A DNA stretch of 59,959 bases, filler included, from Nitrospirae bacterium CG2_30_53_67 (lineage in GTDB: Bacteria > CG2-30-53-67), in the NCBI GenBank assembly GCA_001873285.1. It is 3 parts of 3 records of this genome, joined end to end, with 100 filler letters (N's around TTAATTAATTAA, not from the genome) between each part and the next. Parts side by side here need not be neighbours in the genome. Positions count along the whole stretch, not along the records: positions 14,670 to 44,844 come from MNYV01000096.1; 2 more parts are not named here. One strand, written 5' to 3'. Both the position numbers and the translations under genes were made by a program. Below the pieces are notes generated by a model. That model did not search any database. It was not told where the DNA came from and saw only the letters and a program-made list of their open reading frames with translations. The stretch's first letter is position 1, and every line of letters starts with the position of its first letter. Below are positions 2,443 to 41,650 of this stretch, piece by piece.

Positions 2443-3128
2443 AGCGCGGGTCTATCGTGACCATTGACGGGCCCTCGGGTGCAGGAAAGAGTACCGTGGC
2501 GAGACAGCTCGCTGAACGATTGGGATACCGATATATCGACACCGGCGCCATGTACCGGGCGATCGGATGGCTGGCCAGAGAAAGGAAGGTCCCATTTCAT
2601 GACGGCTCGGAGCTCCATGCGCTCCTTGAGAGCGCAAGCCTCTCTTTTGAGGAAAAGGATGGGAGTACCCGTATCCTGGTCAACGGCACGGACGTGACCG
2701 GCCTCATCCGGAAACCCGATATGGGAATGGTGGCCTCGGATATCTCAGCCATTGAGCCGGTCAGGAGATGGCTTTCCTCCCTGCAGAGAAAACTCGGCGA
2801 GCAGGGGAATGCCGTTCTCGAAGGGCGGGACATGGGCACCGTGGTCTTTCCGGATGCGGATTATAAATTTTTTCTCACCGCCTCCCTGTATGAGCGTGCA
2901 AGAAGGCGTGCCGAGCAGATCAAAGAAAAAGGAGATGAGGTTGACTTGGATGCCGTGATCAAGGAGGTCTCCCTGCGTGACAGAAACGACTCCACCCGAT
3001 CCCTTTCCCCCCTTCGCAAGGCCGAGGATGCCGTGGAGATCGACACCACGTCCATGACCATCCAGGAGGCCGTTGAGAGGCTGATCATGGAGATCCGGAC
3101 AGGCCGAGGCAAAAACAGGGGATCATAG
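2439..3128 (+). CDS. cmk: cytidylate kinase
   Basis: IDGPSGAGKST, DTGAMYR, EGRDMGTVVFP. Confidence 0.97.
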   Translation: MKRGSIVTIDGPSGAGKSTVARQLAERLGYRYIDTGAMYRAIGWLARERKVPFHDGSELHALLESASLSFEEKDGSTRILVNGTDVTGLIRKPDMGMVASDISAIEPVRRWLSSLQRKLGEQGNAVLEGRDMGTVVFPDADYKFFLTASLYERARRRAEQIKEKGDEVDLDAVIKEVSLRDRNDSTRSLSPLRKAEDAVEIDTTSMTIQEAVERLIMEIRTGRGKNRGS

Positions 3129-3131
3129 ATC

Positions 3132-3980
3132 ATGGAAATCATTATTGCCGGCCATGCCGGGTTCTGTTTCGGTGTAAAGAGAGCGATTTCGACCGCCTAT
3201 GAAACGGTGGACAAGGCCGGGGGGGAGGTCGGCACCATCGGCCCGCTTATCCACAACCCGCAAGTGGTTTCCCGCCTTGAATCCGTGGGCGTACGGCCCA
3301 TAGAGAATATACGGGATTTCCATGGTGAGGCGCTGATCATCCGATCACACGGTGTCTCCCAATCCATGGTAAAAACAGCGGAAGATGCAGGGATTCGTCT
3401 TGTGGATGCCACATGCCCTTTTGTCAAAAAGGCCCAGGAATACGCCCGTCGGCTCAAAGAGGAAGGCTATACCGTGGTGATCGTGGGAGACAAGAACCAC
3501 CCCGAGGTACGGGGAATCCTCTCCTATGCCGGGGAGTCGGCGCTCGTTGCGGCAATCCCTCAAGACCTTGACGTTCTGAACAAGGTGCGAAAGATCGGGA
3601 TCATCGCTCAGACCACCACCACATTTGAAAAGTTTGAACAGGTTGTGAAGCAATGCCTGCATCAAGCGAACGAGATCAAGATCTATAATACCATCTGCGA
3701 CGAGACTCATGTCCGCCAGCAGGAGGCCCAGGGGATTGCGCGGCGGGTGGATGTGATGCTGGTCGCGGGAGGAAGGAACAGCGGGAACACGACACGGCTT
3801 GCCGAACTCTGCCGCCTCACCGGGACCCGGACCTTTCATATCGAGACCCGGGATGAGATCGATCCGGCCTGGTTTCATGGGGCCGGCAAGGTCGGGATCA
3901 CGGCGGGCGCATCCACGCCCGAGTGGATCATTGAGGAGATGATAGAACGGCTGAATCAAATCTCAGGGGAATCCGTATGA
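3132..3980 (+). CDS. ispH: 4-hydroxy-3-methylbut-2-enyl diphosphate reductase
   Basis: AGFCFGVKRA, IHNPQV, DATCPFV, HPEV, TIC, GITAGASTP. Confidence 0.97.
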   Translation: MEIIIAGHAGFCFGVKRAISTAYETVDKAGGEVGTIGPLIHNPQVVSRLESVGVRPIENIRDFHGEALIIRSHGVSQSMVKTAEDAGIRLVDATCPFVKKAQEYARRLKEEGYTVVIVGDKNHPEVRGILSYAGESALVAAIPQDLDVLNKVRKIGIIAQTTTTFEKFEQVVKQCLHQANEIKIYNTICDETHVRQQEAQGIARRVDVMLVAGGRNSGNTTRLAELCRLTGTRTFHIETRDEIDPAWFHGAGKVGITAGASTPEWIIEEMIERLNQISGESV

Positions 3981-14669: not shown

Positions 14670-14763
14670 CCGGTCAAGCCCCGGTAAACCGAGGGCAAGC
14701 CGGACAATGACAAACTAATTACGACTTCTGTCACTGTGTATATTTACGAATTGGGCCGCTAAG
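14670..14763. repeat. end of REP-like element (CAAGCCGGACAATGAC) plus MITE family 1 terminal repeat
   Basis: TATTTACGAATTGGGCCGCTAAG (14741-14763) matches the family-1 TIR. GGACAATGAC is the reverse complement of the start of the 58533 element. Confidence 0.6.
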
Positions 14764-28127: not shown

Positions 28128-28769
28128 ATGCCGAATAAGAAAGAGCAGGAAACGGAGAAAATACAGGCAGGCAAGAAGTCGTTCTGGCGAGAGAACTTCG
28201 AAGCCATTCTCATCGCTTTGGTCCTGGCCCTTTTCATCAGGACCTTCGTGGTGCAGGCATTCAAAATTCCTTCCGGGTCCATGCTGGAAACCCTGCAGAT
28301 CGGTGATCATATCCTGGTCAATAAATTTATATACGGAATCCATGTTCCGTTTACGAACGTATCCTTTCTCCATTTTTATAAACCTGAGAGGGGGGATATC
28401 ATCGTCTTCAAGTACCCGAAGGATGAGAAAAGAGATTTCATCAAACGGGTGGTCGGCGTTTCGGGAGATACCGTGGAGGTCCGGGACAAGATCGTTTATG
28501 TCAACGGCGAGAGGCTTCGCGATGAGGACTTTGTGGCCCACAGGGATTCCGTCATGATACCGGGTCCTCGGGACAACTTCGGTCCGGTGACCGTACCGCA
28601 GGGCTGCTATTTTATGATGGGGGACAACCGGGACGGGAGTTACGACAGCCGGTTCTGGGGATACGTTAAAGAGGAAGAAATCCTCGGCAAGGCGCTGATC
28701 ATCTACTGGTCATGGGACCGGGAGAATCTCAGGCCGAGGCTGGGGCGGATCGGGAAAATGATTCGTTAA
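28128..28769 (+). CDS. lepB: signal peptidase I
   Basis: IPSGSM, GDHILVNKF, RGDIIVF, FIKRVVG, GDNRDGSYDSR; follows lepA. Confidence 0.96.
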   Translation: MPNKKEQETEKIQAGKKSFWRENFEAILIALVLALFIRTFVVQAFKIPSGSMLETLQIGDHILVNKFIYGIHVPFTNVSFLHFYKPERGDIIVFKYPKDEKRDFIKRVVGVSGDTVEVRDKIVYVNGERLRDEDFVAHRDSVMIPGPRDNFGPVTVPQGCYFMMGDNRDGSYDSRFWGYVKEEEILGKALIIYWSWDRENLRPRLGRIGKMIR

Positions 28770-28785
28770 ATCATGCAACAAATCA

Positions 28786-28815
28786 TTGACGAATTTTAAT
28801 TTAACATGGTAAAAT
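28786..28815 (+). promoter_or_regulatory. sigma70-type promoter upstream of the rSAM cluster
   Basis: TTGACG-18 nt-TAAAAT with extended -10 TG. Confidence 0.5.
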
Positions 28816-28874
28816 TCAGTCCGCCCCCGAGCCTTCGAGCCTTCGTGAACCGAGTAAGAGGTGTACCTGATACC

Positions 28875-30284
28875 ATGAAAAAAGAATGCCTGTTAATCTC
28901 CTCTCCCGCTGAATTAAATATCTTTCCTCGCGGCATTATGGAGATTGCCACATTTCTGAATCAACAGGGCTGCCCCACATCTGTTTTGCCATTGGGTTAC
29001 TACTTTCAAAAAGACTATGCTGCGGATTCATCAGGGTATATTATCGGGGATATCGACCGGAATGAACTTTATGCCATCCTGCAGGATGTGATCAGAGAGA
29101 TCGCCCCACAGGTGATCGGCGTCAGCAACTCCTTTACCAAAGACTTCCCATACTGCATTGAGATTATTAAAATCTGTAAGGAAATCAATCCCAAAATCGT
29201 CACGGTGATGGGAGGCCAGCATGTGACATTTTGTGACCAGGAAGCTCTTCAGACGCCGGAACTGGATGTGGTGGTAAGGGGGGAAGGTGAATGGATCATG
29301 CTGAATCTGCTTCGTGCCGTAACGGGGAAAAAAGAGTTGAGTGGTGTCCGGGGGATCACGATCAGGCAGAATGGGGGGATTGGGCGAACCCCACCGGAGC
29401 CCCTCGGCAAACTGGAAGAGATCTCCGCTGTAGATTTTGCTTTATTACCTTCGGATTTTGTGCGGAAAGCATGTATCATCGGCATTTCATACAGGGGCTG
29501 TGCTCACCACTGCAAATACTGTGTGGAGGAGAAATTCTGGGCCAGGCCGCGTGCGTACACGCTTGAAAAACTCATTACAGAGATGAAAGTATTGCAAAGA
29601 GATTATCAGACTCAGATCATCGGCCTTGGGGAAAGCATGCTGGATATGCGATCAAAAATATTTTATGACCTCTGCCGGGGAATTCGAGACAATGAAATCA
29701 CGCTTCCGCCGGACTTCTTTATGACAACCCGCATAGACACGGTGACGGATCAAGGAGTAGATTGCCTGGCTAAGACCGGCATAAAGTCCGTTAGTGTGGG
29801 GATCGAAAATTTCTCTCCAAAGGTCCTGAAGATGATGGCAAAGAACCAGAGTATGGACGTCATTCTTGAAGGCTGCGAAAAATTCATGAAAAAGGATATA
29901 TGGCTGCTGAGCTACTGGTTGATCGGACATCCCGGCGATAATGCAGATGAAGCTGACTACAACTACAGCAAGTTTAAGGAATTCTTTGAAAAGGGTCTCT
30001 TGAAAAGAGGGACGGCATTCATTTTTGTTCCCTATCCCGGTACCGACTACTTCAATCATCCGGAACAATACGGAATCAGGATATCCTCATACGACTGGAA
30101 ACAGTGGAACCGCTGGACAAAAGATCCGGTAAGTTGGCTGGATGATTTTCCAAAACCTGAAATCGTCGCGGCTTATGATCGAGCCCATGAATTGCTGCGC
30201 GGTTATAATGGTCTTAACAATTTTCTATATTACATGAGCGCTTTCGATCGTTCCGCTTATCTGTCTATGACGCGTTCATCTTAG
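28875..30284 (+). CDS. B12-binding domain radical SAM protein (class B methyltransferase-like)
   Basis: GGQHVT and VVRGEGE (cobalamin-binding domain), RGCAHHCKYC, GIEN, PYPGT. Confidence 0.88.
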   Translation: MKKECLLISSPAELNIFPRGIMEIATFLNQQGCPTSVLPLGYYFQKDYAADSSGYIIGDIDRNELYAILQDVIREIAPQVIGVSNSFTKDFPYCIEIIKICKEINPKIVTVMGGQHVTFCDQEALQTPELDVVVRGEGEWIMLNLLRAVTGKKELSGVRGITIRQNGGIGRTPPEPLGKLEEISAVDFALLPSDFVRKACIIGISYRGCAHHCKYCVEEKFWARPRAYTLEKLITEMKVLQRDYQTQIIGLGESMLDMRSKIFYDLCRGIRDNEITLPPDFFMTTRIDTVTDQGVDCLAKTGIKSVSVGIENFSPKVLKMMAKNQSMDVILEGCEKFMKKDIWLLSYWLIGHPGDNADEADYNYSKFKEFFEKGLLKRGTAFIFVPYPGTDYFNHPEQYGIRISSYDWKQWNRWTKDPVSWLDDFPKPEIVAAYDRAHELLRGYNGLNNFLYYMSAFDRSAYLSMTRSS

Positions 30285-30450
30285 TGGCCCTATTCGTAAA
30301 TACGGTCGCATTCGAGTGCCGTATGGCGGTCTCCTCGGCGTTGCGCTCCTTGCGGTGTACCACAGTGGGTACGCCTCAGTCGCGCGCCTTGATGAGACCG
30401 CCCTACGACCCTCTCGGTACGTTACCATATTTACGAACAGGACCACTTAG
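30280..30450 (-). mobile_element. MITE family 1, full copy (inverted relative to 10995)
   Basis: Same TIRs, CTTAG at both ends; the left CTTAG contains the TAG stop of the upstream gene. Confidence 0.85.
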
Positions 30451-30496
30451 TCATCCTCCCTCTGATAGATGGCATTGATACGCGGGAAAGGACGGG

Positions 30497-31063
30497 TTGA
30501 AGGTTTTAGCAGATCAGATATTCAATTTAAAAGAACGGATCCTCTTTGAAACGCTTCAAGAAGAAGGGATTGTTTTTCATTTGGGCAATCGCATGGTTCA
30601 TACACTGAACCGGACGGGCGCGGGAATCCTTCATCTCCTGGATGGACATAGAAATGTGAGAGAGGTGATCCAGGCCTTCTCCAGGATGTGTGAACAACCT
30701 GAAGAGGTTTTAAGAAAGGACGTGGAGCATTTTCTTTCAGACCTTTACGAAAGGGGTTGGTTGATGTTAAACGAGCGCCATAATTTATTGATCAATCAGG
30801 AGATTGTATTAAGAGAAGAAGAAGGAGGAGCCTTTTTGTTTGAACCGGACACGGGCCGGCTATGTCATCTCAACGCCTTGGGGACGAGCATTTGGAAATT
30901 ATGCAGAAAACCTATCACCTCCGCGCAGATCATTGATGAAATATGCAAGGAGTACCCTGCAACGCCGCAGGAACAGATCTCTAAGGATTGCTTGCTTTTT
31001 CTGGAAGAGTTGGATCAATTAGGATTTTTCGCAAACCGTGAAGATCATGAGAGGGATTCATGA
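30497..31063 (+). CDS. scmD: tandem PqqD/RRE peptide chaperone (ScmD-like)
   Basis: Two PqqD repeats: LNRTGAGILHLLDG...DVEHFLSDL and VLREE...LFEPDTG...LNALGTSIWKLC...DCLLFLEEL. Confidence 0.85.
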   Translation: MKVLADQIFNLKERILFETLQEEGIVFHLGNRMVHTLNRTGAGILHLLDGHRNVREVIQAFSRMCEQPEEVLRKDVEHFLSDLYERGWLMLNERHNLLINQEIVLREEEGGAFLFEPDTGRLCHLNALGTSIWKLCRKPITSAQIIDEICKEYPATPQEQISKDCLLFLEELDQLGFFANREDHERDS

Positions 31064-32205
31064 GCAACAACATGGACCAGCAGCCCAAACATCCTTTACG
31101 GTCTATTTATTTTTATCCAACCGAATCGTGCAATTTAAAATGCATCCATTGCTGGATACGTCCGGCCTATGCGCCGGATGAGAAATCCTATCAAAGGCAG
31201 AACCAGGAGAATGTCTCTGTTGAAGTCATGGATCGGGTGGTTCGGGACGCCCTTCCCTTGGGTTTGTCCCATGTAAAATTTACCGGAGGAGAGCCCTTTG
31301 TCCATCCGGGGCTTTTCGAATTTATCGACTGCTTCTCCGGCCATGGACTTTCCTTGAGCTTTGAAACCAACGGCACATTGCTCTCTGCCGGCATGGTTCA
31401 AAGACTTTGCAAGCACAACGTGACGCAGATTTCCGTCAGCCTTGATGGAAGTCATGCTGATATCCATGAGAGGATCCGGGGGGTGAGGGGAAGCTTCGAG
31501 AAAGCCGTAAACGGGATTCAACTTCTTATGGAACATCAGATCGATCCGCAAGTCATTTTCTGTCTCCAGAAAATCAACGCCCATGATCTTGAGAACACGA
31601 TCCGCCTGGCCTACAAGATGAAAGTGAAATTATTTGAAATCAATCCCATGATTTTTGTCGGGATCCGGGAATCGTCTGAGAATGGGTGCGAAGGTTTGTC
31701 CCTTAAAGAGCTGCTGGACCTTGAAAACAAAGTGGAAACCGAATACGCGGATCGCTATCCGAATATGCATATTGATCTCTACCTTCCCCCGGCACTGAAA
31801 GGAATGCGGGAACTGGCTCGACATCCGATATGTTCCTGCGCGATCTTTAATATCTGCGGGATTCTTTCCAACGGGGACGTTTCGATTTGCGGCATTGGAA
31901 GCAGAAACAGGGAACTGGTCATGGGGAATGTCAAAGAAAAAAGTGTCTCTAAGATATGGGAAGAGGGCATCCTTTTTAAGGAAATTCGGGAACAGGTCCC
32001 GCTGCATCTGAAAGGCGTATGCAGACGATGTCTTTTCAAGCATCATTGCCTCGGCTTCTGCCGCGCCGACGTGATCTCTCATGAGAAAACGGTCTTGAAT
32101 TCTTATCAGGTCTGTGAAGAGGCATGCCGGAAAGGCCTTTTCCCGGAGTCCAGACTGTTGGAAGAGAGTGAATTGTCCAGAGTCCATGGGGAATGGAATT
32201 CATGA
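31060..32205 (+). CDS. scmF: radical SAM/SPASM peptide maturase, ScmF-like
   Basis: PLRSIYFYPTESCNLKCIHCWI, FTGGEP, SPASM ICGIG...CRRC..KHHCLGFC, GLFPESR. Confidence 0.85.
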   Translation: MSNNMDQQPKHPLRSIYFYPTESCNLKCIHCWIRPAYAPDEKSYQRQNQENVSVEVMDRVVRDALPLGLSHVKFTGGEPFVHPGLFEFIDCFSGHGLSLSFETNGTLLSAGMVQRLCKHNVTQISVSLDGSHADIHERIRGVRGSFEKAVNGIQLLMEHQIDPQVIFCLQKINAHDLENTIRLAYKMKVKLFEINPMIFVGIRESSENGCEGLSLKELLDLENKVETEYADRYPNMHIDLYLPPALKGMRELARHPICSCAIFNICGILSNGDVSICGIGSRNRELVMGNVKEKSVSKIWEEGILFKEIREQVPLHLKGVCRRCLFKHHCLGFCRADVISHEKTVLNSYQVCEEACRKGLFPESRLLEESELSRVHGEWNS

Positions 32206-33278
32206 ATATTTTTTCCGCGCCGCAAAAGGTCACCCTGAATGTTACCAACCGATGCAACCTGAACTGCCTCTATTGCGGCGTCTCTTCCACAAAGAATGCG
32301 CCCGGCGACCTGAACCTTGAAGAATGGAAAGAGGTGGTGGATGAACTTGCGCGCATCAAAGTCTTCCGTTTGCTGATTTCCGGGGGCGAACCTTTTATAT
32401 ATCCTGATCTTCCCGATCTGCTGACATACATTCTTCAATATCCGTTCAGAATTTCAATCAACACCAATGGAACCCTTCTCAATGCAAAGATACTCTCCAT
32501 GCTTTCCGGCTCTCGCCGTCTGGAGAACGTTCAGGTTTCTTTAGACGGTCCGAATTCAGAGGTTCATGATTTTATCCGCGGTAAAGGATCGTTTGCAAAG
32601 AGTATGGAAGGCATTGATCTCCTTCGCCGATACCATATTCCCTTTAGTTTTTTTGTTGTTGTTTCCAAGAACAATCAAGACGTTCTCCATGAGATTGTTG
32701 AATTTTCGAATCAGGTCGGCGTGTCAGAGATTACATTCTCGTCTTTATTACCCCAGGGGAGCGCGCTATTCCATTGGAAAGATCTTTGCCTTAGCTTTCA
32801 AGAGCAGAAGAGAGTCGAAGGTGAATTGAGGCGGCTAAGGAGCCGATACCCGAAACGGGTCGGAGGATCATTGGTCAATGCGATTGCGATGATGGATCGC
32901 ATTTCTCAATTGGATGTCACGGAGCGGCAGCCCTCAGATTCGAATAAGATCACGAGTTGTGGTGGAAGTGTGGAGGAATGTTCCATCCGTCCGGATGGAT
33001 GGGTGATCCCCTGCGATCGTCTATGGGACTATAAAGTGGGGAATGTGAGAACGGAATCTTTTAGGGATATCTGGCAGCACTCCCAAGGGATGCGTCAGTT
33101 CCGGACGCGTTATTCTCGCAGCATGGATTCCTTCAAAGAGTGCCATGATTGCTTATATGCTTATTTATGCAGAGGGGGATGCCCGGCAGTTCCTTATAAC
33201 ATGGGAAGAGGGATTGACGGTTGGGACCCGCTTTCTTGTTATAAAGTTTTCATCGGTCAAAAGAACAGCTATGTCTAA
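32202..33278 (+). CDS. scmE: radical SAM/SPASM peptide maturase, ScmE-like
   Basis: TNRCNLNCLYC, SGGEP, SPASM SCGG...DGWVIPC...CHDC...CRGGCPA...SC. Alternative start at 32193. Confidence 0.85.
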   Translation: MNIFSAPQKVTLNVTNRCNLNCLYCGVSSTKNAPGDLNLEEWKEVVDELARIKVFRLLISGGEPFIYPDLPDLLTYILQYPFRISINTNGTLLNAKILSMLSGSRRLENVQVSLDGPNSEVHDFIRGKGSFAKSMEGIDLLRRYHIPFSFFVVVSKNNQDVLHEIVEFSNQVGVSEITFSSLLPQGSALFHWKDLCLSFQEQKRVEGELRRLRSRYPKRVGGSLVNAIAMMDRISQLDVTERQPSDSNKITSCGGSVEECSIRPDGWVIPCDRLWDYKVGNVRTESFRDIWQHSQGMRQFRTRYSRSMDSFKECHDCLYAYLCRGGCPAVPYNMGRGIDGWDPLSCYKVFIGQKNSYV

Positions 33279-34317
33279 TTTACCGAACACCATGGAAAAA
33301 CAGATGGATGTGGAGATAGGAGGCGAAGTCTTTCATCTCTATTTTGAAAAATGGAATCATCGGTGGAACCATGCATTGGGAAAAAACTACGGCGATTATA
33401 TAACCCATTCGAAAAAAACGGGCTGTCATGTACAGGTGATCCCATATTCTGACGGCCGGCATTTTATTTGGAAGCCATCCGAACTGGAGAGATTCAGAGA
33501 ATTTTTTCTAAACATTCATCAACGGTATCCAGGGAATGGACCCGTGGAGGAAGCCGCGGAAAGTTCGCTTGATATTTTGCAAACCCTTGATCCGGAAAAA
33601 AATTCGATGAAGGATATACGTTCCTGTATGGATGAACCCCAAACCCTGATCTATTTGAGGATCGGGTCTGATCTCTATTTTATTGATATCCAATCAAGAA
33701 ACGCCTATTTTTTTATTCGAGAAAGAACCCGGCAAATCCCATGGTTAAACGTTCTCATCAAGAATCGGTCCTCGGAAGATATGGGGATGATGAACGGAAT
33801 GATGTTCCTCCTTTCACATCGATTAATCCATCATGGAGGATTATTGCTTCACGGCGCAGCGGTCCGGAAAGAAGATCAGGCCGTTCTGTTTCTTGGACTT
33901 TCAGGCGCCGGGAAATCTACTGTGAGCCGCCTATGCAGGCCTGATGTTTGTTTCTCGGATGATGGGACGATTATCAAGAAAGAAGAGGGTCGAGTTTATG
34001 CCTATCATTCACCCTTCAGGCAATATAAGATAAAAGAGAGATCTGTGGAATCCGTGAAAGGAGAGATCAAGAAGCTCTTTCTGATAGAGCAAAGTACGGA
34101 AAATCTGATCAGACCCATAAAAAAAAATGAACTGATGAGTACGATCCTTCTGCATCTGATTCATTTTTACAAATACTTGGATCAAGAGACTGCACGGATG
34201 GGTTTTTATCTGGTCAAGGATATCTTAGAGACCCTTCCGGCTTACCGATTGCAATTTGCCAAGAAAAGTGATATATGGAATCACCTATTTCAAATGGAGG
34301 AAAATTGTAATGACTGA
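33271..34317 (+). CDS. scmC: HPr kinase-like P-loop protein (ScmC-like)
   Basis: GGLLLHGAAV, GLSGAGKST, FSDD, SPF. Confidence 0.75.
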   Translation: MSNLPNTMEKQMDVEIGGEVFHLYFEKWNHRWNHALGKNYGDYITHSKKTGCHVQVIPYSDGRHFIWKPSELERFREFFLNIHQRYPGNGPVEEAAESSLDILQTLDPEKNSMKDIRSCMDEPQTLIYLRIGSDLYFIDIQSRNAYFFIRERTRQIPWLNVLIKNRSSEDMGMMNGMMFLLSHRLIHHGGLLLHGAAVRKEDQAVLFLGLSGAGKSTVSRLCRPDVCFSDDGTIIKKEEGRVYAYHSPFRQYKIKERSVESVKGEIKKLFLIEQSTENLIRPIKKNELMSTILLHLIHFYKYLDQETARMGFYLVKDILETLPAYRLQFAKKSDIWNHLFQMEENCND

Positions 34318-34519
34318 TCAGCCAAACAACAAAAAAGATTATGAGCCTCCGAAGGTTAAAGAAATAGGAGGGATCTATGAACAAGCTATGGGGATATCCA
34401 AGTGCCAAACCGGCGGCACTTTTGCCGCAAGCTGTCGTGCCGGGAATCGCGCGTCAAGTTGTCTTGCTGGGTCTACTCCCGGGCCAGGGACATCGTGTTC
34501 CATGGGAAACCCGGTATGA
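34310..34519 (+). CDS. candidate RiPP precursor peptide, 69 aa, with four CxxG motifs
   Basis: GGAGG RBS, overlap with the upstream stop, YEPPKV leader motif, Cys/Gly/Ser/Thr-rich core. Confidence 0.8.
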   Translation: MTDQPNNKKDYEPPKVKEIGGIYEQAMGISKCQTGGTFAASCRAGNRASSCLAGSTPGPGTSCSMGNPV

Positions 34520-34561
34520 TAAATTTTTTTTATGGCCCTTCAAGATCGAGAGGATAAAACT

Positions 34562-35005
34562 TCACTCCTGATTCGGCTCGACCCTCTTCTGAAATGGTAA
34601 GATCCGCTTTAATACATTCTTGGCTTTAAATTCCAGTGCGCCAGGCGTCAGGCCCATGCGGCTAAGGGCGGCATAAAGCCTTTTGAACCTTGATCGGGGG
34701 CCGGAGGCCACCGAAATCAGCCGTCTCCTTCTCACGATGAGTTCCACCTTGCCGGCAGCCTTTGAAAGATCAACCCGTTCAGGGTCCGGTGCAAGGAGCG
34801 CGTCTCCCTTAGTCATTCCGCATTTCAGGCCGATCCGTTTGATCAATCGATGCACCATTAAGCGGCCATAAGTGTTCCGGACCGCAATCATATCTCCAAC
34901 TTCAAGGCAAGCGGGCGGGACCTTCCTGACAATCAATCGGTCCCCGGGTTTGAGACAGGGATACATGGAGTATCCGGTGAAGGGCAAAGTGAAAAATTTC
35001 ATCAT
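34562..35005 (-). CDS. S24/S26 family peptidase
   Basis: GYSMYPCLKPGD, VHRLI, TKGD. Confidence 0.8.
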   Translation of the reverse strand: MMKFFTLPFTGYSMYPCLKPGDRLIVRKVPPACLEVGDMIAVRNTYGRLMVHRLIKRIGLKCGMTKGDALLAPDPERVDLSKAAGKVELIVRRRRLISVASGPRSRFKRLYAALSRMGLTPGALEFKAKNVLKRILPFQKRVEPNQE

Positions 35006-35188
35006 ATCAAAGTGGATCCATCTATATGTCAAACTCACAGAATAGAAGAGGTTTTATCGGATTCTATAATAATTATAACCCGTTCTGAAAATATACGTCA
35101 ATGTTTTGTTGCTGTTGCCATGTGTTATAAGCGCACTTTCTCATCATAAACTTTTTCACGCCCGACATCCCCTTTATTAAATAATGAT

Positions 35189-35325
35189 TATGTAATCTGT
35201 TACCCAACTATGTAACGCGTTACATAGTTTTTCTTTTGTTCATTTTTAAGCCATCCATGTAAACCAAGAAAAAGCAATGACTTAGACAGAAATGCTTCGC
35301 ATGTCTTTTTGGCATGTTTATTGCT
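35189..35325 (+). promoter_or_regulatory. sigma54 promoter with upstream palindromic activator sites
   Basis: TGGCATGTTTATTGCT (GG 35311, GC 35323). Perfect palindrome at 35206-35229 and a second GTAA-N4-TTAC at 35192-35203. Confidence 0.75.
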
Positions 35326-35376
35326 CTATTGTCCCATAGATCTATGGAAAGTTTTATCCAATGGAGGAGAGGATAT

Positions 35377-35715
35377 ATGTTTAAAGATAAAAAAATTTCA
35401 AGCCGTGAGACAAATTTTCATCGTGCAGGATACCGCATCGCCTTTATTATTTTTATCATTTCTCTTTTAAGTGTTTTTACCATCTCCCTGGGGTATGCGG
35501 AAAAAGTCACTGTTGTTGAAGGAATCATAGAAAATGTGACGGAGCATTCCATAAAAGTTCGAAACAATAATTATGAAGTGATCGGGGTTCCTCTCCTCAA
35601 AAGCTCAGGGGAGGCACTATCGTATGATGCGCTCCGGCGGGGGAAAAAAGTGGAGATCTTTTTTCATGACAAAAAAATCACATCCATAATTATTCATGAA
35701 GATATGGTGGAATAA
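35377..35715 (+). CDS. hypothetical exported protein, first gene of the pilY1 operon
   Basis: Strong RBS, hydrophobic signal/TM segment, small beta-rich domain. Confidence 0.65.
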   Translation: MFKDKKISSRETNFHRAGYRIAFIIFIISLLSVFTISLGYAEKVTVVEGIIENVTEHSIKVRNNNYEVIGVPLLKSSGEALSYDALRRGKKVEIFFHDKKITSIIIHEDMVE

Positions 35716-35725
35716 GGAGTTGAAT

Positions 35726-38700
35726 ATGAAACGATGCATTTTATTTATTTTTTTGTCCTTATCTTTAATATTTTGTTCTTTTGAAAACTCGGATGCCGTC
35801 ATGGAGGACTACTGTCTTGTTCCTCCTTACGTAGTTCAGAATATTTCTCCCAACGTCATGATTGTTCTGGATAATTCCGGAAGTATGTTTAATTTTGCCT
35901 ATTCCGACGGCTTTACTACAACCACAACGGCAGATGACAATCCGTGTTACAGTTCAGGCAGCCCCTGTACAGAATTTTCAACACCCGGCGCCTATCCTGC
36001 CTACCAATATTACGGCTATTTCAACCCTGACTACTGGTACGATTACCAGAGTAACAGGTTTATCCCAACTGCTCCAAAAACAGGAAGCGGGCTTACAGGC
36101 GAGAGGGCAAAGCTCTCCTCAGAATGGGATGGCAATTTTCTTAACTGGCTGACCATGAGAAGGATAGATATTATAAGAAAAGTCATGACTGGGGGGAAGA
36201 CAACCACGGGCGAAGGCTCAGGCTTCGACAGACTCAATGGGGAAGTAGCGGATTGCGACAGCAGAGGAAAATACAAAAAGATAACAAATGCAGATCTCTA
36301 CACGCCTTACAGTGGAACTCGGAAACTCTATGTTTATTCTGCAAGTGCCGGCTGCGGTGGCGGTGGATCTGGTACATCTTCATTCTCCATCAGGAACGAC
36401 ACTGGAGGGAGTGATGGCACTGGTAATGAAGGAACCTGGAATGTAACAGTCAGGGTGCCATCTCCCGTGGAAGGTGTTGTCCAGAGTGTCGTCGGTACCA
36501 GGGCACGACTGGGGCTTTCATTTTATAAGACGAATGCCCCCAGGCCGCAGGGCGGTTTTGTTCAGGTCAACGTCTCTGGTGGAAGTCTTTCAAGTACGGT
36601 AAACCAGATCAATCTCACCAGGCCGAGCACCAACACGCCCTTAGCTGAAACGTTATGGACGGTAGCCGGTTATTTTGCCCAGACGGCAAGCATGGAAAGC
36701 GGCCCCGGGCCTCGCTACAGCAGCGCGGATTATACGATCAACAACACAGCGGATCCTTACAATTATGGCACAGGCGGTCAGCCCAGCTACCCAAGCTGTG
36801 CCAAGAGTTTTGTGCTGTATATCACCGACGGAGAGCCGTGTGCGGACGGTTATCTGCCGGCAACTTTAAAAAGTTATGCCAACGGCAGATCCAACTATGA
36901 TTGTTATGACTTAAATCCCGGCAATCCCGGCAGGGGTGGTTATTGTCCGGCTGTGGGAAGCTTTGCGGCATCCACCTTTCCGACATGCAATGGAGGCTGG
37001 CAGGGCGGATATGTCTCCGGCATGGAAGATGTGGCATTGTATGTTCATACCAACGATCTCAGGACAGCGGCAACCAAGGATATAACCGGCAAACAGGTCT
37101 TAACGCTTTATTCAGTATTTGCCTTCGGCAAGGGGTCCACACTGCTTCGATATGCAGCGATTAATGGCGGGTTTGAAGATTTTAATGGGAATGACGTCCC
37201 GGATCTTCAGTCCGAATGGGACAACAACGGCGACGGCGAACCCGACAACTTCTATGAGGCCGTAGACGGCCAGGAACTCGAAAAATCCATTCGGGATGCT
37301 TTTTCAAGCATACTCAAGAGGGCCGCTTCGGGCACGGCAGCCTCGGTTCTTGCCTCCGGTGAGGGTAGCGGGGCCAATCTTATCCAGGCGGTATTTTATC
37401 CGAGAAAGAGGATCGGAAACGATATTATCGGGTGGGCCGGTGTGGTTCAGGACCTTTGGTATTATGTGGACCCGCTGTACACAAACAGCAGTGTCAGAGA
37501 AGATACGGTTAAAGACAATATCCTCAGCCTTCCTGACGATAATATCGTGAGTATTTACTTCGATACCACTGATCAAATGGTCAAGGCCAAAAAATACGAC
37601 AGCGATCAGGATGGAAACATTGGGGCGCTCAATTCGACAATTCTTTTTGAGGATCTGAAGAATTTATGGGAAGCCGGCAAGATCTTGTGGCAGCGGGATC
37701 TTACCGCGGAGCCAAGGACGATCTACACCACAACCGACGGAAGCAGTTTGTTCGACTTCTCAGTAGCCAATGCCGGGTCACTGAGCGCCCTTCTCGATGT
37801 TCAGGATGAAAACAGTGACTTAAATAGAACCGATGACGCTGAGTATCTCATCCGGTATATCCACGGCGAGGACTTCATTGGTATGGACCGCAACGTTGAC
37901 GGGACGGATGATTTCCGGTCAAGGACGGTTTCGATGGACGGCGTTTCGAATACGTGGAAGCTCGGGGATATCATTAACTCGACTCCTAAGATTGTCTCAT
38001 GGTATCGGTTGAACCGGTATGATCGAGATTATGGGGATACCACATACGGGCCTTGTGATGATCCACTTGCATATTGTCAGGATCCGTCTCAGAGCGATAC
38101 GGCAGACCCGAACCATTTTATCACAACCCAGGCTTATAAGGACCGGGACACGGTCTATGTGGGCGGGAACGACGGGATGCTTCACGCCTTTAGACTCGGG
38201 ACCTTGAGGCTCAAATGGGCCGGAAAGGGGAACTATGAAGCGGCGTCGCTGGACAGTTCGGGGGAGATGACAGGGTTGGGCGAGGAACGATGGGCCTTTA
38301 TCCCCAAGAATGCCCTGCCTTATCTCAGATACCAAAAAGAGCAGGACTACTGTCATCTGTATACGGTAGATCTCACCCCCACGGTTTTTGACGCCAGTAT
38401 CAATGGAAGTGCGAGTGCTGTAAGGGACGTAAACAGTTGGAAAACCATCCTGATCGGCGGCATGAGGCTGGGCGGCGCCAGCAGTAACGCCGGTTCAGCC
38501 TGCACGGATTGCGTGAAGACACCCATCAACGGCGTGGGCTATTCATCCTACTACGCCCTGGATGTGTCGGATGAGAACAATCCTCAGCTTCTCTGGGAAT
38601 TTACCAATCCGGACCTTGGTTATGCGACCACAGGACCTGCCGTTATCCGGATAGGGGCCAAAGACACAAACGGCAGTTGGTTTGTGGTACTGGGCTCCGG

Positions 38701-39703
38701 TCCCACCGGACCCATCAGCTCTACAGGTTACCAATTTATGGGGCGGTCCGACCAGAACCTCAAGCTCTTTATCCTTGATTTGAAGACAGGCGCCCTGTTG
38801 ACAACGATCGATACCGGACTGACGAATGCCTTTGCAGGCACCCTGATCAATTCCAACAATGATGTGGACGACAACTACCAGGACGAAGTTCTCTATATCG
38901 GCTACGTGACGAGAAACAGGGTAGGTAGTAATTATTTCTGGAACAACGGAGGGATAGGCAGGCTGGTTACCAAGGAAGATGCCAATCCGGGCAACTGGGT
39001 CTGGAGCAAGGTCATGGACGGCATCGGGCCGGTCACAGCGGGGATCACCCGTCTGCGGGATAAAAAACAGGATAGACTCTGGCTCTTCTCAGGTACGGGA
39101 CGATATTATTTCTCTCTCGATACCGAAAACGACGATCCGGACGGCCAGAGATATATTTTCGGTTTCAAAGACCCCTGCTATGTGCCGAACTCGGGGTATG
39201 ATAAGTTAGGGCTATGTACAACTACGGTGGATTTTAACACTTTTGATCTTCGAACCGTGACAGGCTTCAGCGCTGGTGGATGGGCGGAACCCAGCACCGG
39301 CTGGAAATGGGCTTTGGATGGCCAAGGGTCCGGTACCTATCCCGAAGGCGATCCTGCCGTGGACGTCACGAAAAACTATTTTTCCGAAAGGATGGTTTCC
39401 GATCCCTTCACCTCCAAGACCGGGTGCACATTCTTTACGACCTTCAGACCCTATAATGAACAATGTTCCATTGGAGGGGAATCCTTTATTTGGGTGCTTG
39501 ATTATAAAACGGGAGGCCGCCCTAACTGTGATGGTAAGTTGACATTCCAGGTCTCCACAGGGGCCATACAGGAAGTCAATATCGATGATATCCCAGGGCC
39601 CAAGTCTGTCGGAACGGACGGTCAAACCCCCGATGGGCAGGGAGCGGCGCTTCAGTCCGGAGCGGACCCCACCAAGTTGCTTATTCACAAAAGGAAGAAA
39701 TAA
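35726..39703 (+). CDS. pilY1: type IV pilus adhesin PilY1/PilC
   Basis: Signal peptide, vWA-like DNSGS and ITDGEP, KLGDIINSTP, GGNDGMLHAF, ERWAFIP, DxDxDG loops. Confidence 0.92.
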   Translation: MKRCILFIFLSLSLIFCSFENSDAVMEDYCLVPPYVVQNISPNVMIVLDNSGSMFNFAYSDGFTTTTTADDNPCYSSGSPCTEFSTPGAYPAYQYYGYFNPDYWYDYQSNRFIPTAPKTGSGLTGERAKLSSEWDGNFLNWLTMRRIDIIRKVMTGGKTTTGEGSGFDRLNGEVADCDSRGKYKKITNADLYTPYSGTRKLYVYSASAGCGGGGSGTSSFSIRNDTGGSDGTGNEGTWNVTVRVPSPVEGVVQSVVGTRARLGLSFYKTNAPRPQGGFVQVNVSGGSLSSTVNQINLTRPSTNTPLAETLWTVAGYFAQTASMESGPGPRYSSADYTINNTADPYNYGTGGQPSYPSCAKSFVLYITDGEPCADGYLPATLKSYANGRSNYDCYDLNPGNPGRGGYCPAVGSFAASTFPTCNGGWQGGYVSGMEDVALYVHTNDLRTAATKDITGKQVLTLYSVFAFGKGSTLLRYAAINGGFEDFNGNDVPDLQSEWDNNGDGEPDNFYEAVDGQELEKSIRDAFSSILKRAASGTAASVLASGEGSGANLIQAVFYPRKRIGNDIIGWAGVVQDLWYYVDPLYTNSSVREDTVKDNILSLPDDNIVSIYFDTTDQMVKAKKYDSDQDGNIGALNSTILFEDLKNLWEAGKILWQRDLTAEPRTIYTTTDGSSLFDFSVANAGSLSALLDVQDENSDLNRTDDAEYLIRYIHGEDFIGMDRNVDGTDDFRSRTVSMDGVSNTWKLGDIINSTPKIVSWYRLNRYDRDYGDTTYGPCDDPLAYCQDPSQSDTADPNHFITTQAYKDRDTVYVGGNDGMLHAFRLGTLRLKWAGKGNYEAASLDSSGEMTGLGEERWAFIPKNALPYLRYQKEQDYCHLYTVDLTPTVFDASINGSASAVRDVNSWKTILIGGMRLGGASSNAGSACTDCVKTPINGVGYSSYYALDVSDENNPQLLWEFTNPDLGYATTGPAVIRIGAKDTNGSWFVVLGSGPTGPISSTGYQFMGRSDQNLKLFILDLKTGALLTTIDTGLTNAFAGTLINSNNDVDDNYQDEVLYIGYVTRNRVGSNYFWNNGGIGRLVTKEDANPGNWVWSKVMDGIGPVTAGITRLRDKKQDRLWLFSGTGRYYFSLDTENDDPDGQRYIFGFKDPCYVPNSGYDKLGLCTTTVDFNTFDLRTVTGFSAGGWAEPSTGWKWALDGQGSGTYPEGDPAVDVTKNYFSERMVSDPFTSKTGCTFFTTFRPYNEQCSIGGESFIWVLDYKTGGRPNCDGKLTFQVSTGAIQEVNIDDIPGPKSVGTDGQTPDGQGAALQSGADPTKLLIHKRKK

Positions 39704-40191
39704 TGAACGGCAAAGGGTTTACTCTCATAGAACTGATTGTGACAGTTACTATTATCGGTATCCTCTCCCTCGTTCTGGGAACTTCGTTTCAAGGGAGCAT
39801 CGCCGCAAACAGGATTGAAGGTCAGGTCAAAGAGCTGCACGCTGACTTGATGACTGCAAGGGCCCGGGCCATGCAGCGGAATCGGATCTATTTTGCCGTG
39901 GTGGGCGCCGGCAGTTACCAGATCTGGGAAGATACGGACCAGGACGGCGTGCAGGATCCCGCCCCTGCGGATACTCCCCTGTTTGCCGTCCCGAAGCTGT
40001 TTGACGATCCGGTTTCGGCCGGGGCTGGGACGATTGTGATGAATGTCACGGGAATCGTGACCACGCCGGGAACCGTACAGTTTGATATCTCAAGGGCTTC
40101 AAGCACTCCGCCGGATTATGACTGTATTGAATTGACGCAGACGAGGATCAAGATGGGGCAGATGAATGGAGGGACGTGTAATGTCAAATAA
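39703..40191 (+). CDS. fimT: FimT/FimU/GspH-like minor pilin
   Basis: G|FTLIEL prepilin site, ARARAM. Confidence 0.88.
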   Translation: MNGKGFTLIELIVTVTIIGILSLVLGTSFQGSIAANRIEGQVKELHADLMTARARAMQRNRIYFAVVGAGSYQIWEDTDQDGVQDPAPADTPLFAVPKLFDDPVSAGAGTIVMNVTGIVTTPGTVQFDISRASSTPPDYDCIELTQTRIKMGQMNGGTCNVK

Positions 40192-40567
40192 CAAGGGTTT
40201 CAGCCTGATCGAGATCATGATTTCCCTGGTGGTCCTTCTGGTGATATTCATCGGGCTGATGCAGGGCGCATTGGTTTCCATAGATTCGAATATGAGGGAC
40301 AACCTGAGGGAGGAGGCGATCAGTATCGCCAATTCACAGATGCTGACTGCCAGAGACATGAGTTTTGCCGCTTTGGATTCGTTCACGACCACGGTAAACA
40401 TCAATAAAAACTTCAGGAATATGCCTCCTTTCCCTTTTACGGTTACACCGGCAGTCAGTATTCTCGACGCGAATAATAAGGAAGTGACGATTACCGTATC
40501 ATGGACGTGGAAAGGCCAGGTTTATTCCCATTCCGTGGCCTCGATTGTGAGAAACCCAGCAGCATAG
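40181..40567 (+). CDS. pilV: PilV-like minor pilin
   Basis: G|FSLIEI, VTITVSW. Confidence 0.85.
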   Translation: MSNNKGFSLIEIMISLVVLLVIFIGLMQGALVSIDSNMRDNLREEAISIANSQMLTARDMSFAALDSFTTTVNINKNFRNMPPFPFTVTPAVSILDANNKEVTITVSWTWKGQVYSHSVASIVRNPAA

Positions 40568-40582
40568 TGAGGTAATCAAATC

Positions 40583-41650
40583 ATGAAGCGCGAAGCCGGA
40601 TTCAGCCTGATCGAGTTAATGGTCGCTATGACCGTATTTATTTTAGCCATCGCTGCCGCCTCGAATGTCTTTCTGGGCCTTCTGGGCCAATTCAAGCAGC
40701 AGTCCAGCATATCAGAATCCAATATGGAAGGGATGATCGGATTTGAGATACTGAAGAGAGATATCGAACTGGCCGGAGACGGGCTCCCTTGGACACCGGT
40801 CGGCACTTTCTATCCCGAATGCACTAACCCGAGTTATAATGATTCCTCCGCCGTTGCCCCGAGGTCAATCGTAAGTGACAACGATAATCCATCACTGTTC
40901 AATGGGTCGGATTATATCGTAGTCAAAGGGATCGGTGTGGCCAGCAATAACGTGGCCCAAAAATGGACTCGGCTGGGGGCCGGCGGGACAACCAGAGTAT
41001 GGGGGGCCGCTTCAGAGGATTTTTCGGGCGCCGACTATGTGGTTGTCTACGATCCTTTTAACCATGCGTTGGTGACGAATGGGGGGAGCTTTTCCACGCA
41101 ATATAATGCAGTTTCCGGTTTTGCGCCTACGGGGTCTCTAACCTATATCGTCTACGGAATAAACCCCAGTAGCATACAAATGCCGTTTAACCGTGCGGAT
41201 TATTATATCTCGGACGGGAGTGTCCCCTATGCCTCAACGACTGTTGTGCCTTCCAAATGTGCTCCAGGCACAGGTGTGCTGGTCAAGGCCGAGGTGAGTC
41301 AAGCGGACGGCACTTTAAATGAGCTGCCCCTGATCGACTGCGCCGCCGATATGCAGGTGGTCTATGGTTTGGATAGCGATGGCACCAATGATGGCGTTGT
41401 AGATTTATACATGAACGACATCTCCGCGTTGACCGCTCAACTCATCCGAGATCAGTTGAAGGAAGTCAGACTCTATGTCCTCGCCCACGAAGGGGCGTTG
41501 GACATGAAATACACCATGTCGAACAGTTCCATCACCGTTGGAGAGTTCGGATTGGGGAGGGACTTTGACTTAACGACCATTACGAATGGAGTTAATTACC
41601 GATGGAGGGTTTACACCCTTGTGGTCAGAAAAGACTATCTGACGAAATAA
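40583..41650 (+). CDS. pilW: PilW-like minor pilin
   Basis: G|FSLIEL, RDIELAG, MQVVYGLD. Confidence 0.88.
   Translation: MKREAGFSLIELMVAMTVFILAIAAASNVFLGLLGQFKQQSSISESNMEGMIGFEILKRDIELAGDGLPWTPVGTFYPECTNPSYNDSSAVAPRSIVSDNDNPSLFNGSDYIVVKGIGVASNNVAQKWTRLGAGGTTRVWGAASEDFSGADYVVVYDPFNHALVTNGGSFSTQYNAVSGFAPTGSLTYIVYGINPSSIQMPFNRADYYISDGSVPYASTTVVPSKCAPGTGVLVKAEVSQADGTLNELPLIDCAADMQVVYGLDSDGTNDGVVDLYMNDISALTAQLIRDQLKEVRLYVLAHEGALDMKYTMSNSSITVGEFGLGRDFDLTTITNGVNYRWRVYTLVVRKDYLTK

Follow-up and report, generated by a model that had tools for sequence, protein, structure and literature searches.

What is encoded by the short open reading frame (ORF) that closes a radical S-adenosylmethionine (SAM) gene cluster of Nitrospirae bacterium CG2_30_53_67? 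The whole stretch of DNA that was analyzed, here called the window (59,959 nucleotides, nt), contains genes for a protein with two PqqD domains, two radical SAM/SPASM enzymes (the maturases), and an HPr-kinase-like protein, followed by an ORF for a peptide with four cysteines. The same gene content, with a PqqD homolog, a pair of radical SAM/SPASM enzymes, one HPr-kinase-like protein, and a short peptide rich in cysteine in one operon, is that of the SynChlorMet (SCM) cassette, for which NCBIfam holds the models ScmA (TIGR04252), ScmC (TIGR04249), ScmD (TIGR04248), ScmE (TIGR04250), and ScmF (TIGR04251). We conclude that the short ORF very probably encodes the ribosomal precursor peptide of an SCM-like cassette in which radical SAM enzymes make a ribosomally synthesized peptide with posttranslational modifications (RiPP).

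The short ORF and its relatives

The ORF starts with an ATG behind a GGAGG sequence (Table 1), stops with TGA at positions 34517 to 34519, directly followed by TAA, and is translated to MTDQPNNKKDYEPPKVKEIGGIYEQAMGISKCQTGGTFAASCRAGNRASSCLAGSTPGPGTSCSMGNPV (69 residues). It stands last in an operon on a single strand, with neighbors that overlap, and shares its first 8 nt, from the ATG on, with the end of the ScmC-like gene upstream (TGA stop at 34315 to 34317). Each of the four cysteines (Cys32, Cys42, Cys51, and Cys63, at spacings of 10, 9, and 12) has a glycine at +3 (CxxG); Cys42, Cys51, and Cys63 are preceded by serine and Cys32 by lysine. A preliminary description of this DNA, made from the sequence alone, had reported the 69-amino-acid (aa) ORF with its ribosome-binding site and ATG, the four cysteines in CxxG motifs, the serine before three of them, and the concealment of the ORF within an 87-aa ORF of the mechanical ORF list. 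Reading and translating the sequence bore out all four points, the longer form having a TTG start and spanning 34256 to 34519. No second copy of the peptide was found in its own genome.

A single-sequence search with the peptide returned one relative only, P0002, which is 93% identical, differs at noninvariant positions only, and has been called at 69 aa. Relatives were therefore sought through the cassette enzymes. At E values of 1e-30 or better, 531 database proteins are related to the ScmF-like protein, among them a clade of 50 to 63% identity, mostly from uncultivated Desulfobacterales-type genomes, several members of which were named ScmF by the Joint Genome Institute (JGI). From an alignment of 21 ScmF-like relatives, in which the CxxxCxxC and SPASM cysteine columns are conserved, we retrieved 21 genomic loci, 12 at 55 to 62% identity (the close loci) and 9 at 27 to 43%; single loci are given below by our handles (L003 and so on). 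A phmmer search of the peptide against the six-frame ORFs of these loci gave 12 matches with E values of 1.7e-15 to 1.2e-8, located in 11 loci and all on the cassette strand. Ten of the 12 close loci contain the short ORF; in the other two, L006 and L008, the contig ends in or just after the ScmF gene or within the ScmC gene. It follows the ScmC gene, as in the window, in seven close loci (with two copies there in L010), lies between the ScmF and ScmE genes in L003 and L004, and precedes the ScmF gene in L009. Weaker relatives of the peptide were found in L023, L018, and L015, the one between the ScmF-like and ScmC-like genes of L018 (positions 3026 to 3733, plus strand) being a 236-aa family member with a Y-I-P-P leader, 26 CxxG units, and 28 cysteines. 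Comparable ORFs beside related cassettes, on which the preliminary description had made its claim depend, are found in every close locus of sufficient length (10 of 10) and in four that are more distant.

A profile built from 13 aligned peptides matched 92 clusters in a collection of 5.8 billion proteins, all unnamed or called "hypothetical protein," and 39 representatives (at 50% identity) with E values of 0.001 or better in a library of 1.84 billion. The peptide family emerged only through genome context and profile search. For three close pairs of peptide relatives, the ratio of nonsynonymous to synonymous substitution rates (dN/dS, Nei-Gojobori method) was 0.139, 0.113, and 0.255. The short ORF is a protein-coding gene that is conserved and has a location linked to the cassette. 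The set that it accompanies is always the same, namely, one PqqD domain or two, the two radical SAM/SPASM enzymes (ScmF-like and ScmE-like), and an HPr-kinase-like protein.

CxxG repeats

In the alignment of the 13 peptides, columns Y11, P13, P14, E18, I19, G20, G21, E24, Q25, A26, G28, C32, G35, F38, C42, G45, C51, and G54 are invariant, and K17, M27, S30, C63, and G66 are conserved at 90% or more. The Y-x-P-P leader motif seen in the preliminary description extends through the family, occurring in 88 of the 92 database relatives. In the same 92 relatives, 500 of 501 post-leader cysteines stand in CxxG, the sole exception being at the C-terminal end, and 408 of 409 Cys-to-Cys intervals measure 9 to 12; 87 relatives have 5 or 6 cysteines and 4 have 4. 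No repeat position beyond Cys and Gly(+3) is conserved overall, position +6 being Asp in 28%, Phe in 21%, and Ala in 15%. Among 32 more distant short representatives, Y-x-x-P is found in all 32, Q-A-x-G in 23, and CxxG at 163 of 181 cysteines, and E-I-G-G is not kept. The repeat number across the family ranges from 4 to 26.

In ORFs of at least 150 aa from the window and the 21 loci, glycine follows at +3 of 207 of 2266 cysteines (9.1%). Of the 7340 ORFs read in six frames from the window and the loci, 16 hold at least four CxxG units at this spacing, each of them being the short ORF next to an Scm-like cassette. The CxxG pattern in the peptide is more than chance. The serine before cysteine fared differently: the residue before each cysteine varies widely among 15 family peptides, so the serines are particular to this copy, and Ser-Cys as a functional motif was ruled out by that variation.

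Two longer database matches, P0220 (504 aa) and P0245 (1062 aa), were hit 8 and 13 times, respectively, by the core part of the profile. Their cysteines stand in CxxG in 19 of 49 and 47 of 59 cases, and they may be unrelated Cys-rich repeat proteins.

Proposed leader recognition

From the conserved columns, the boundary between leader and core would lie between Gly28 and Ile29. No fold was predicted for the peptide alone (mean predicted local distance difference test score [pLDDT] of 45 and predicted template modeling score [pTM] of 0.12, from a shallow 13-row alignment), which would be expected of a substrate peptide and, given the shallow alignment, is weak evidence.

The preliminary description had connected the leader motif with PqqD-type RiPP recognition elements (RREs), and discrete domains of this kind are indeed encoded in the cluster, as two stretches of one protein (Table 1). 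The maturases have no N-terminal RRE of their own. In both, the radical SAM domain starts at residues 16 to 20. The nearest solved structures of the ScmE-like enzyme are SkfB (6efn, E value of 2.9e-23) and 5wgg (E value of 9.6e-17), which we take to be CteB; identity is low, and the alignment begins at SkfB residue 108 and 5wgg residue 94, past their N-terminal domains. Since the ScmE-like enzyme aligns only after about the first 100 residues of these structures and both domains start early, both maturases appear to be without a peptide-binding domain, and the PqqD proteins must therefore supply peptide binding. PqqD supplies peptide binding to PqqE.

A model of the complex between the two PqqD halves and the peptide scored 0.36, and the best of three controls scored 0.14 (replaced C-terminal PqqD half; replacing the peptide gave 0.00 twice), with runs agreeing in at least 58% of contacts and an uncertain partner fold (pLDDT of at least 41). 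Of 157 solved complexes and 215 mismatches, 116 and 2, respectively, come up to the mark used for such models; at scores of 0.60 or lower, only 18 of the 157 do so, as do both passing mismatches. The pass may reflect likeness to solved RRE-leader complexes only. The model lends weak support to leader-RRE binding as foreseen in the preliminary description.

Candidate leader peptidase and accessory enzymes

A convergent gene for a 158-aa serine peptidase lies 42 nt behind the short ORF. The enzyme has the invariant residues S24 (in GYSMxP), H63, R64, K77, G78, and D79 (the latter five in HR and KGD motifs), and its model (pLDDT of 81.3) matches the fold of the LexA C-domain and of bacterial and human signal peptidases. 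A hydrophobic anchor is lacking. On the basis of sequence motifs and the model, it is a candidate leader peptidase. Homologous peptidase domains occur in L005, L007, L010, L011, L012, L015, and L017. In the first five, the domain is fused to NTP_transf_5 (517 to 629 aa) within a convergent minus-strand operon about 0.1 to 5 kb downstream of the precursor, which also encodes an ATP-binding cassette (ABC) exporter of 567 to 587 aa and, in addition, DUF5838 in L007 and a PrmA-like methyltransferase in L005 and L010. In L015 and L017 the domain stands alone, and the window cluster has the peptidase domain only, as the 158-aa protein.

Signal peptidases favor small residues at positions -3 and -1. 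Because of this preference and the invariance of Ala26 and Gly28, we propose that the leader would be cleaved after Gly28 (Ala26-x-Gly28). The preliminary description had placed cleavage near AMG, for which these invariant residues and the recurrence of the S24/S26-fold peptidase are indirect support. Residues 1 to 28 are hydrophilic without a hydrophobic stretch, and only Ala26 (-3) and Gly28 (-1) fit a Sec-type site; without a hydrophobic core, the leader is not a Sec signal. The Gly-Gly pair, with cleavage after Gly21, was considered as another site and found less likely, as E-I-G-G is lost in distant relatives, Q-A-x-G is kept, and there is no C39 domain: the exporters of the relatives carry only ABC_membrane and ABC_tran and no C39 peptidase domain. 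We know of no soluble signal-peptidase-like leader peptidase of the endoplasmic reticulum type (Ser-His) described for RiPPs, and the enzyme is a candidate for a new leader peptidase type.

Among the relatives, only L006, L009, and L010 have a neighboring homolog of the B12-binding radical SAM enzyme encoded at the start of the cluster, and this enzyme is therefore regarded as accessory. According to PMC8498205, lasso precursor peptides are phosphorylated by HPr-kinase homologs, and in lasso clusters a leader protease is found fused to a nucleotidyltransferase. Given the lasso kinase precedent, the near-invariant Ser30 is a candidate phosphorylation site.

Comparison with known systems

Neighboring genes were annotated with Pfam (14 proteins) and NCBIfam (9 proteins). 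The only match of the peptide was to ScmA (16.6 bits, E value of 0.0067, cutoff of 35), with residues 23 to 57 aligned to profile positions 10 to 47; the 87-aa form did not match this model. The ScmD match reached 62.3 bits against a cutoff of 100, and all five window proteins stayed below the curated cutoffs, although each Scm model was among the best matches, with ScmE and ScmF still the best families for the maturases. Nor were the cutoffs reached by the tested enzymes of four related loci (L007, L015, L017, and L018) or by any of the 47 peptides of relatives that were tested (11 plus 36), the best of which reached 25.1 bits against ScmA. In relatives, the ScmA profile aligns from the YEPP motif into the CxxG repeats (for example, residues 7 to 52 of P0225 to positions 1 to 45). 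Compared with SCM, the window clade adds a second PqqD (fused in the window), sometimes a B12-radical SAM enzyme, and a peptidase of the S24/S26 fold. As the window proteins and the tested relatives all fall below the curated cutoffs, the cluster appears to be a sister variant of the SCM cassette rather than a member.

SCM-type clusters are a widespread kind, defined bioinformatically, and a 2011 paper by Haft and Basu, cited in PMC10114670, is reportedly the founding paper for the cassette. To our knowledge, the cassette has not been characterized experimentally. In the literature searched, no published work on the SynChlorMet/Scm cassette was found, and PMC10288494 has no mention of Scm. The existing curated ScmA model lowers the novelty of the peptide; the model misses most of the peptide family. 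The short ORF is a concrete, testable substrate for a radical SAM peptide cassette that curators defined years ago from genome context.

In type 2 sactipeptides (streptosactin/GggB and QmpA/QmpB), a radical SAM enzyme makes unnested small α-thioether rings from cysteine to a nearby residue, and CxxG could give the same ring size. The present family differs from them in having 4 to 26 units that recur about every 10 residues, a pair of maturases to which no RRE is fused, and PqqD as a separate protein, and is known from genes alone. SkfB and CteB are like the ScmE-like enzyme in combining a radical SAM domain with SPASM or twitch and in acting on Cys-containing peptides; in contrast to the window enzymes, they carry an N-terminal peptide-binding domain.

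Lasso clusters (paeninodin and pseudomycoidin) share a Y-x-x-P-type leader, a PqqD-family RRE, a precursor kinase, a nucleotidyltransferase-leader protease fusion, and an ABC exporter with this system, as described in PMC8498205; the likeness in exporter and NTP_transf_5-peptidase fusion is a feature of the relatives of the window cluster. Lasso PqqD models match the C-terminal PqqD half at E values of 2.7e-12 and 4e-11, below their cutoffs. However, neither a lasso cyclase (asparagine-synthetase-like) nor a transglutaminase-type B2 protease was found by Pfam among the 14 neighbors, the protease has an S24/S26 fold, and the core is Cys/Gly-rich without the ring-forming Asp/Glu pattern. That an S24/S26-fold peptidase recurs, along with the kinase/nucleotidyltransferase module, suggests that these clusters process their peptides by a route shared with decorated lasso peptides.

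In the pyrroloquinoline quinone (PQQ) pathway, a separate PqqD chaperone likewise presents a short peptide to a radical SAM/SPASM enzyme without an RRE, and the N-terminal PqqD half of the window protein passes the cutoff of the PQQ PqqD model TIGR03859 (60.9 versus 46). Unlike in that pathway, no other pqq genes are present among the 14 neighbors, the peptide has no Glu-x-x-x-Tyr core, and PqqE is a distant match of either maturase.

Proposed maturation and core chemistry

In the route that we propose, the tandem PqqD/RRE protein would hold the hydrophilic leader (Met1 to Gly28) and present the core to the two RRE-less maturases, which would modify it at the four CxxG units, most likely giving cross-links from cysteine sulfur to carbon. 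The B12-radical SAM enzyme and the kinase-like protein would add optional decorations (methylation and serine phosphorylation, for example at Ser30, respectively), and the soluble Ser-His peptidase of the S24/S26 fold would remove the leader after Ala26-x-Gly28.

Both maturases contain Radical_SAM and SPASM and adjoin a Cys-containing precursor, the combination by which sactipeptide and ranthipeptide clusters are recognized. Thioethers are favored because no reactive residue except cysteine is invariant and because Cys thioethers are what the closest relatives of the ScmE-like enzyme with solved structures produce; by this analogy, we give Cys-sulfur-to-carbon thioethers at the CxxG units slightly less than an even chance. 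The preliminary description had likewise suggested repeated thioether rings, possibly divided between the two maturases. The invariant Gly(+3) suggests a required turn or the acceptor itself. Streptosactin shows the ring size of a four-residue α-thioether (PMC9389541). A Cys(i)-to-Gly(i+3) α-thioether, closing such a ring in each CxxG unit, is unlikely here, if worth naming. In streptosactin, one acceptor is reportedly the glycine at +3. A "beaded" sactipeptide class, in which CxxG α-thioether rings recur from 4 to more than 20 times and are made by two RRE-less enzymes with a tandem PqqD and a Ser-His peptidase cutting after Ala-x-Gly, is an unlikely extension of this idea. A CxxG rule with hardly an exception and units that recur about every 10 residues make a sharp constraint, and the chemistry should be readable by mass spectrometry after coexpression, for which the four-repeat window peptide, as the smallest natural version, would be a handy first substrate.

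Alternative explanations

Several observations weigh against a cassette precursor that is matured in this way, beginning with the scores below the curated SCM cutoffs. The window peptide is the minimal four-Cys type with the fewest repeats, matched by only 4 of the 92 relatives. The modeled leader complex has a low score and an uncertain partner fold. The nearest solved relative of the ScmF-like enzyme is cytosylglucuronate decarboxylase and not a thioether synthase, so the two maturases may differ in function. The peptidase was not found in the available flanks of L003, L004, and L009. Neither an ABC transporter (among the 14 neighbors, by Pfam; five relatives carry one) nor an NTP_transf_5 domain adjoining the cluster was found in the window. 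An ScmF-like enzyme at an E value of 1e-40 or better was not found in the 13 other genomes of the phylum that were searched, only in its own (1 of 14), and none of the 24 runs listed as holding window DNA is an RNA run. The cassette was probably acquired by transfer, since its ScmF-like enzyme was found in a single one of the phylum genomes searched, its nearest ScmF-like relatives (about 60% identical) come from other lineages, and its GC content (0.45 to 0.49) is lower than that of its flanks (0.50 to 0.57), a difference compatible with acquisition and not proof of it. Activity in the window genome is not indicated.

That the ORF is a chance open frame, or that the real product is the 87-aa TTG form, is hardly credible. 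The mechanical ORF list does give that form, and the cutoff of the curated ScmA model is not reached, but the ORF is conserved at the protein level (dN/dS of 0.11 to 0.26), with conservation beginning at the Lys-rich stretch before YEPP and relatives having no matching N-terminal extension; moreover, the ribosome-binding site precedes the ATG, and P0002 was called at the same length. A cassette precursor could also be modified without thioethers, the CxxG unit serving as a recognition or turn element and the products being C-C or C-O cross-links, epimerization, formylglycine, or methylation by the B12 enzyme. We regard this as somewhat unlikely. It would suit the decarboxylase relationship of the ScmF-like enzyme, the B12-radical SAM gene in the operon, the absence of any conserved acceptor across the repeats except glycine, and the nearest SPASM families by NCBIfam score, which include WgkB (a Trp-Lys cross-link), the mycofactocin maturase, and heme b synthase. 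It would leave unexplained why cysteine is the sole invariant reactive side chain of every repeat and why the nearest solved relatives of the ScmE-like enzyme, SkfB and 5wgg, are thioether synthases; the B12 enzyme is missing from most related cassettes and so cannot be the core chemistry.

A small Cys/Gly-rich peptide that binds a metal or cluster, or a cofactor precursor like PqqA or that of mycofactocin, in place of a secreted cross-linked product, is very unlikely. The regular Cys spacing, the PqqD half above the PQQ model cutoff, the mycofactocin maturase as a strong secondary match of the ScmE-like enzyme (165 bits), a window cluster without an exporter, and carriers from anaerobe-type uncultivated lineages speak for such a role. 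Against it, five relatives have an ABC exporter in the convergent operon, a repeat number from 4 to 26 would be unusual for a cofactor precursor, and the scan of 14 neighbors turned up no further pqq or mft genes.

Operon and neighboring genes

The genes from 28806 to 34519 are all on the plus strand, with short gaps or overlaps (Table 1).

Table 1. Features of the gene cluster, with positions counted along the window
Feature	Positions	Strand	Basis or remarks
B12-binding radical SAM enzyme (putative methyltransferase class), first cluster gene	28806..30284	+	Pfam B12-binding and Radical_SAM; NCBIfam matches all below cutoffs
Fused tandem PqqD/RRE protein, 188 aa	30497..31063	+	PF05402, 103.6 bits, two stretches
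Radical SAM/SPASM enzyme, ScmF-like	31060..32205	+	Best family TIGR04251, 297.6 bits (cutoff 400)
Radical SAM/SPASM enzyme, ScmE-like	32193..33278	+	Best family TIGR04250, 236.6 bits (cutoff 400)
HPr-kinase-like ScmC relative	33271..34317	+	Walker A GLSGAGKST; TIGR04249, 40.3 bits (cutoff 125); TIGR04352, 29 bits
GGAGG, Shine-Dalgarno-like	34296..34300	+	Direct sequence reading; 9-nt spacer to ATG at 34310
Probable precursor peptide gene	34310..34519	+	69 codons and TGA stop; sequence, homologs, dN/dS of relatives
Proposed leader, Met1 to Gly28	34310..34393	+	Lys-rich N terminus, then Y11-E-P-P-x-V, E18-I-G-G, E24-Q-A-M-G28
Proposed core, Ile29 to Val69	34394..34516	+	Four CxxG units (Cys32, 42, 51, 63)
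S24/S26-fold serine peptidase, 158 aa, convergent	34562..35038	-	Weak Pfam S26/S24 matches; TIGR02228, 36.8 bits

The mechanical ORF of the ScmC-like gene starts at 33145 and overlaps the ScmE-like gene by 134 nt. Its true start is probably Met43 at 33271, because the overlap is then 8 nt, as for the precursor gene, and the length matches the relatives. The two PqqD genes are separate in close relatives, with an overlap of a few bases, and fused in frame in the window, with a junction near residue 90; L017 also has the fused form. In the window, this may be either a true fusion or an assembly effect. PF14907 had two weak matches in the genome, on other contigs, and none by the cluster.

A scan of 28500 to 35400 gave 13 promoter-like sites (9.5 ± 3.7 in shuffles) and 8 terminator-like sites (6.8 ± 2.6), with no terminator-like site after the short ORF; the scan is uninformative. 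The genes lepA and lepB upstream of the cluster and the type IV pilus operon downstream are unrelated to it. The minor-pilin operon (35696 to 41650) encodes a 1335-aa PilY1-like protein, a GspH/FimT-like pilin, and two further pilins with N-methyl motifs, including a PilW-like one. Between the cluster and the pilus operon, the GC content drops to 0.372 at 35000 to 35999, which may mark the edge of an acquired segment, and a 133-aa ORF (35314 to 35715) in this region has no Pfam or NCBIfam match. The window is a composite, in which only positions 14670 to 44844 lie on one contig (C114), the remainder being N or other contigs. DNA of the window occurs in groundwater and aquifer metagenomes.

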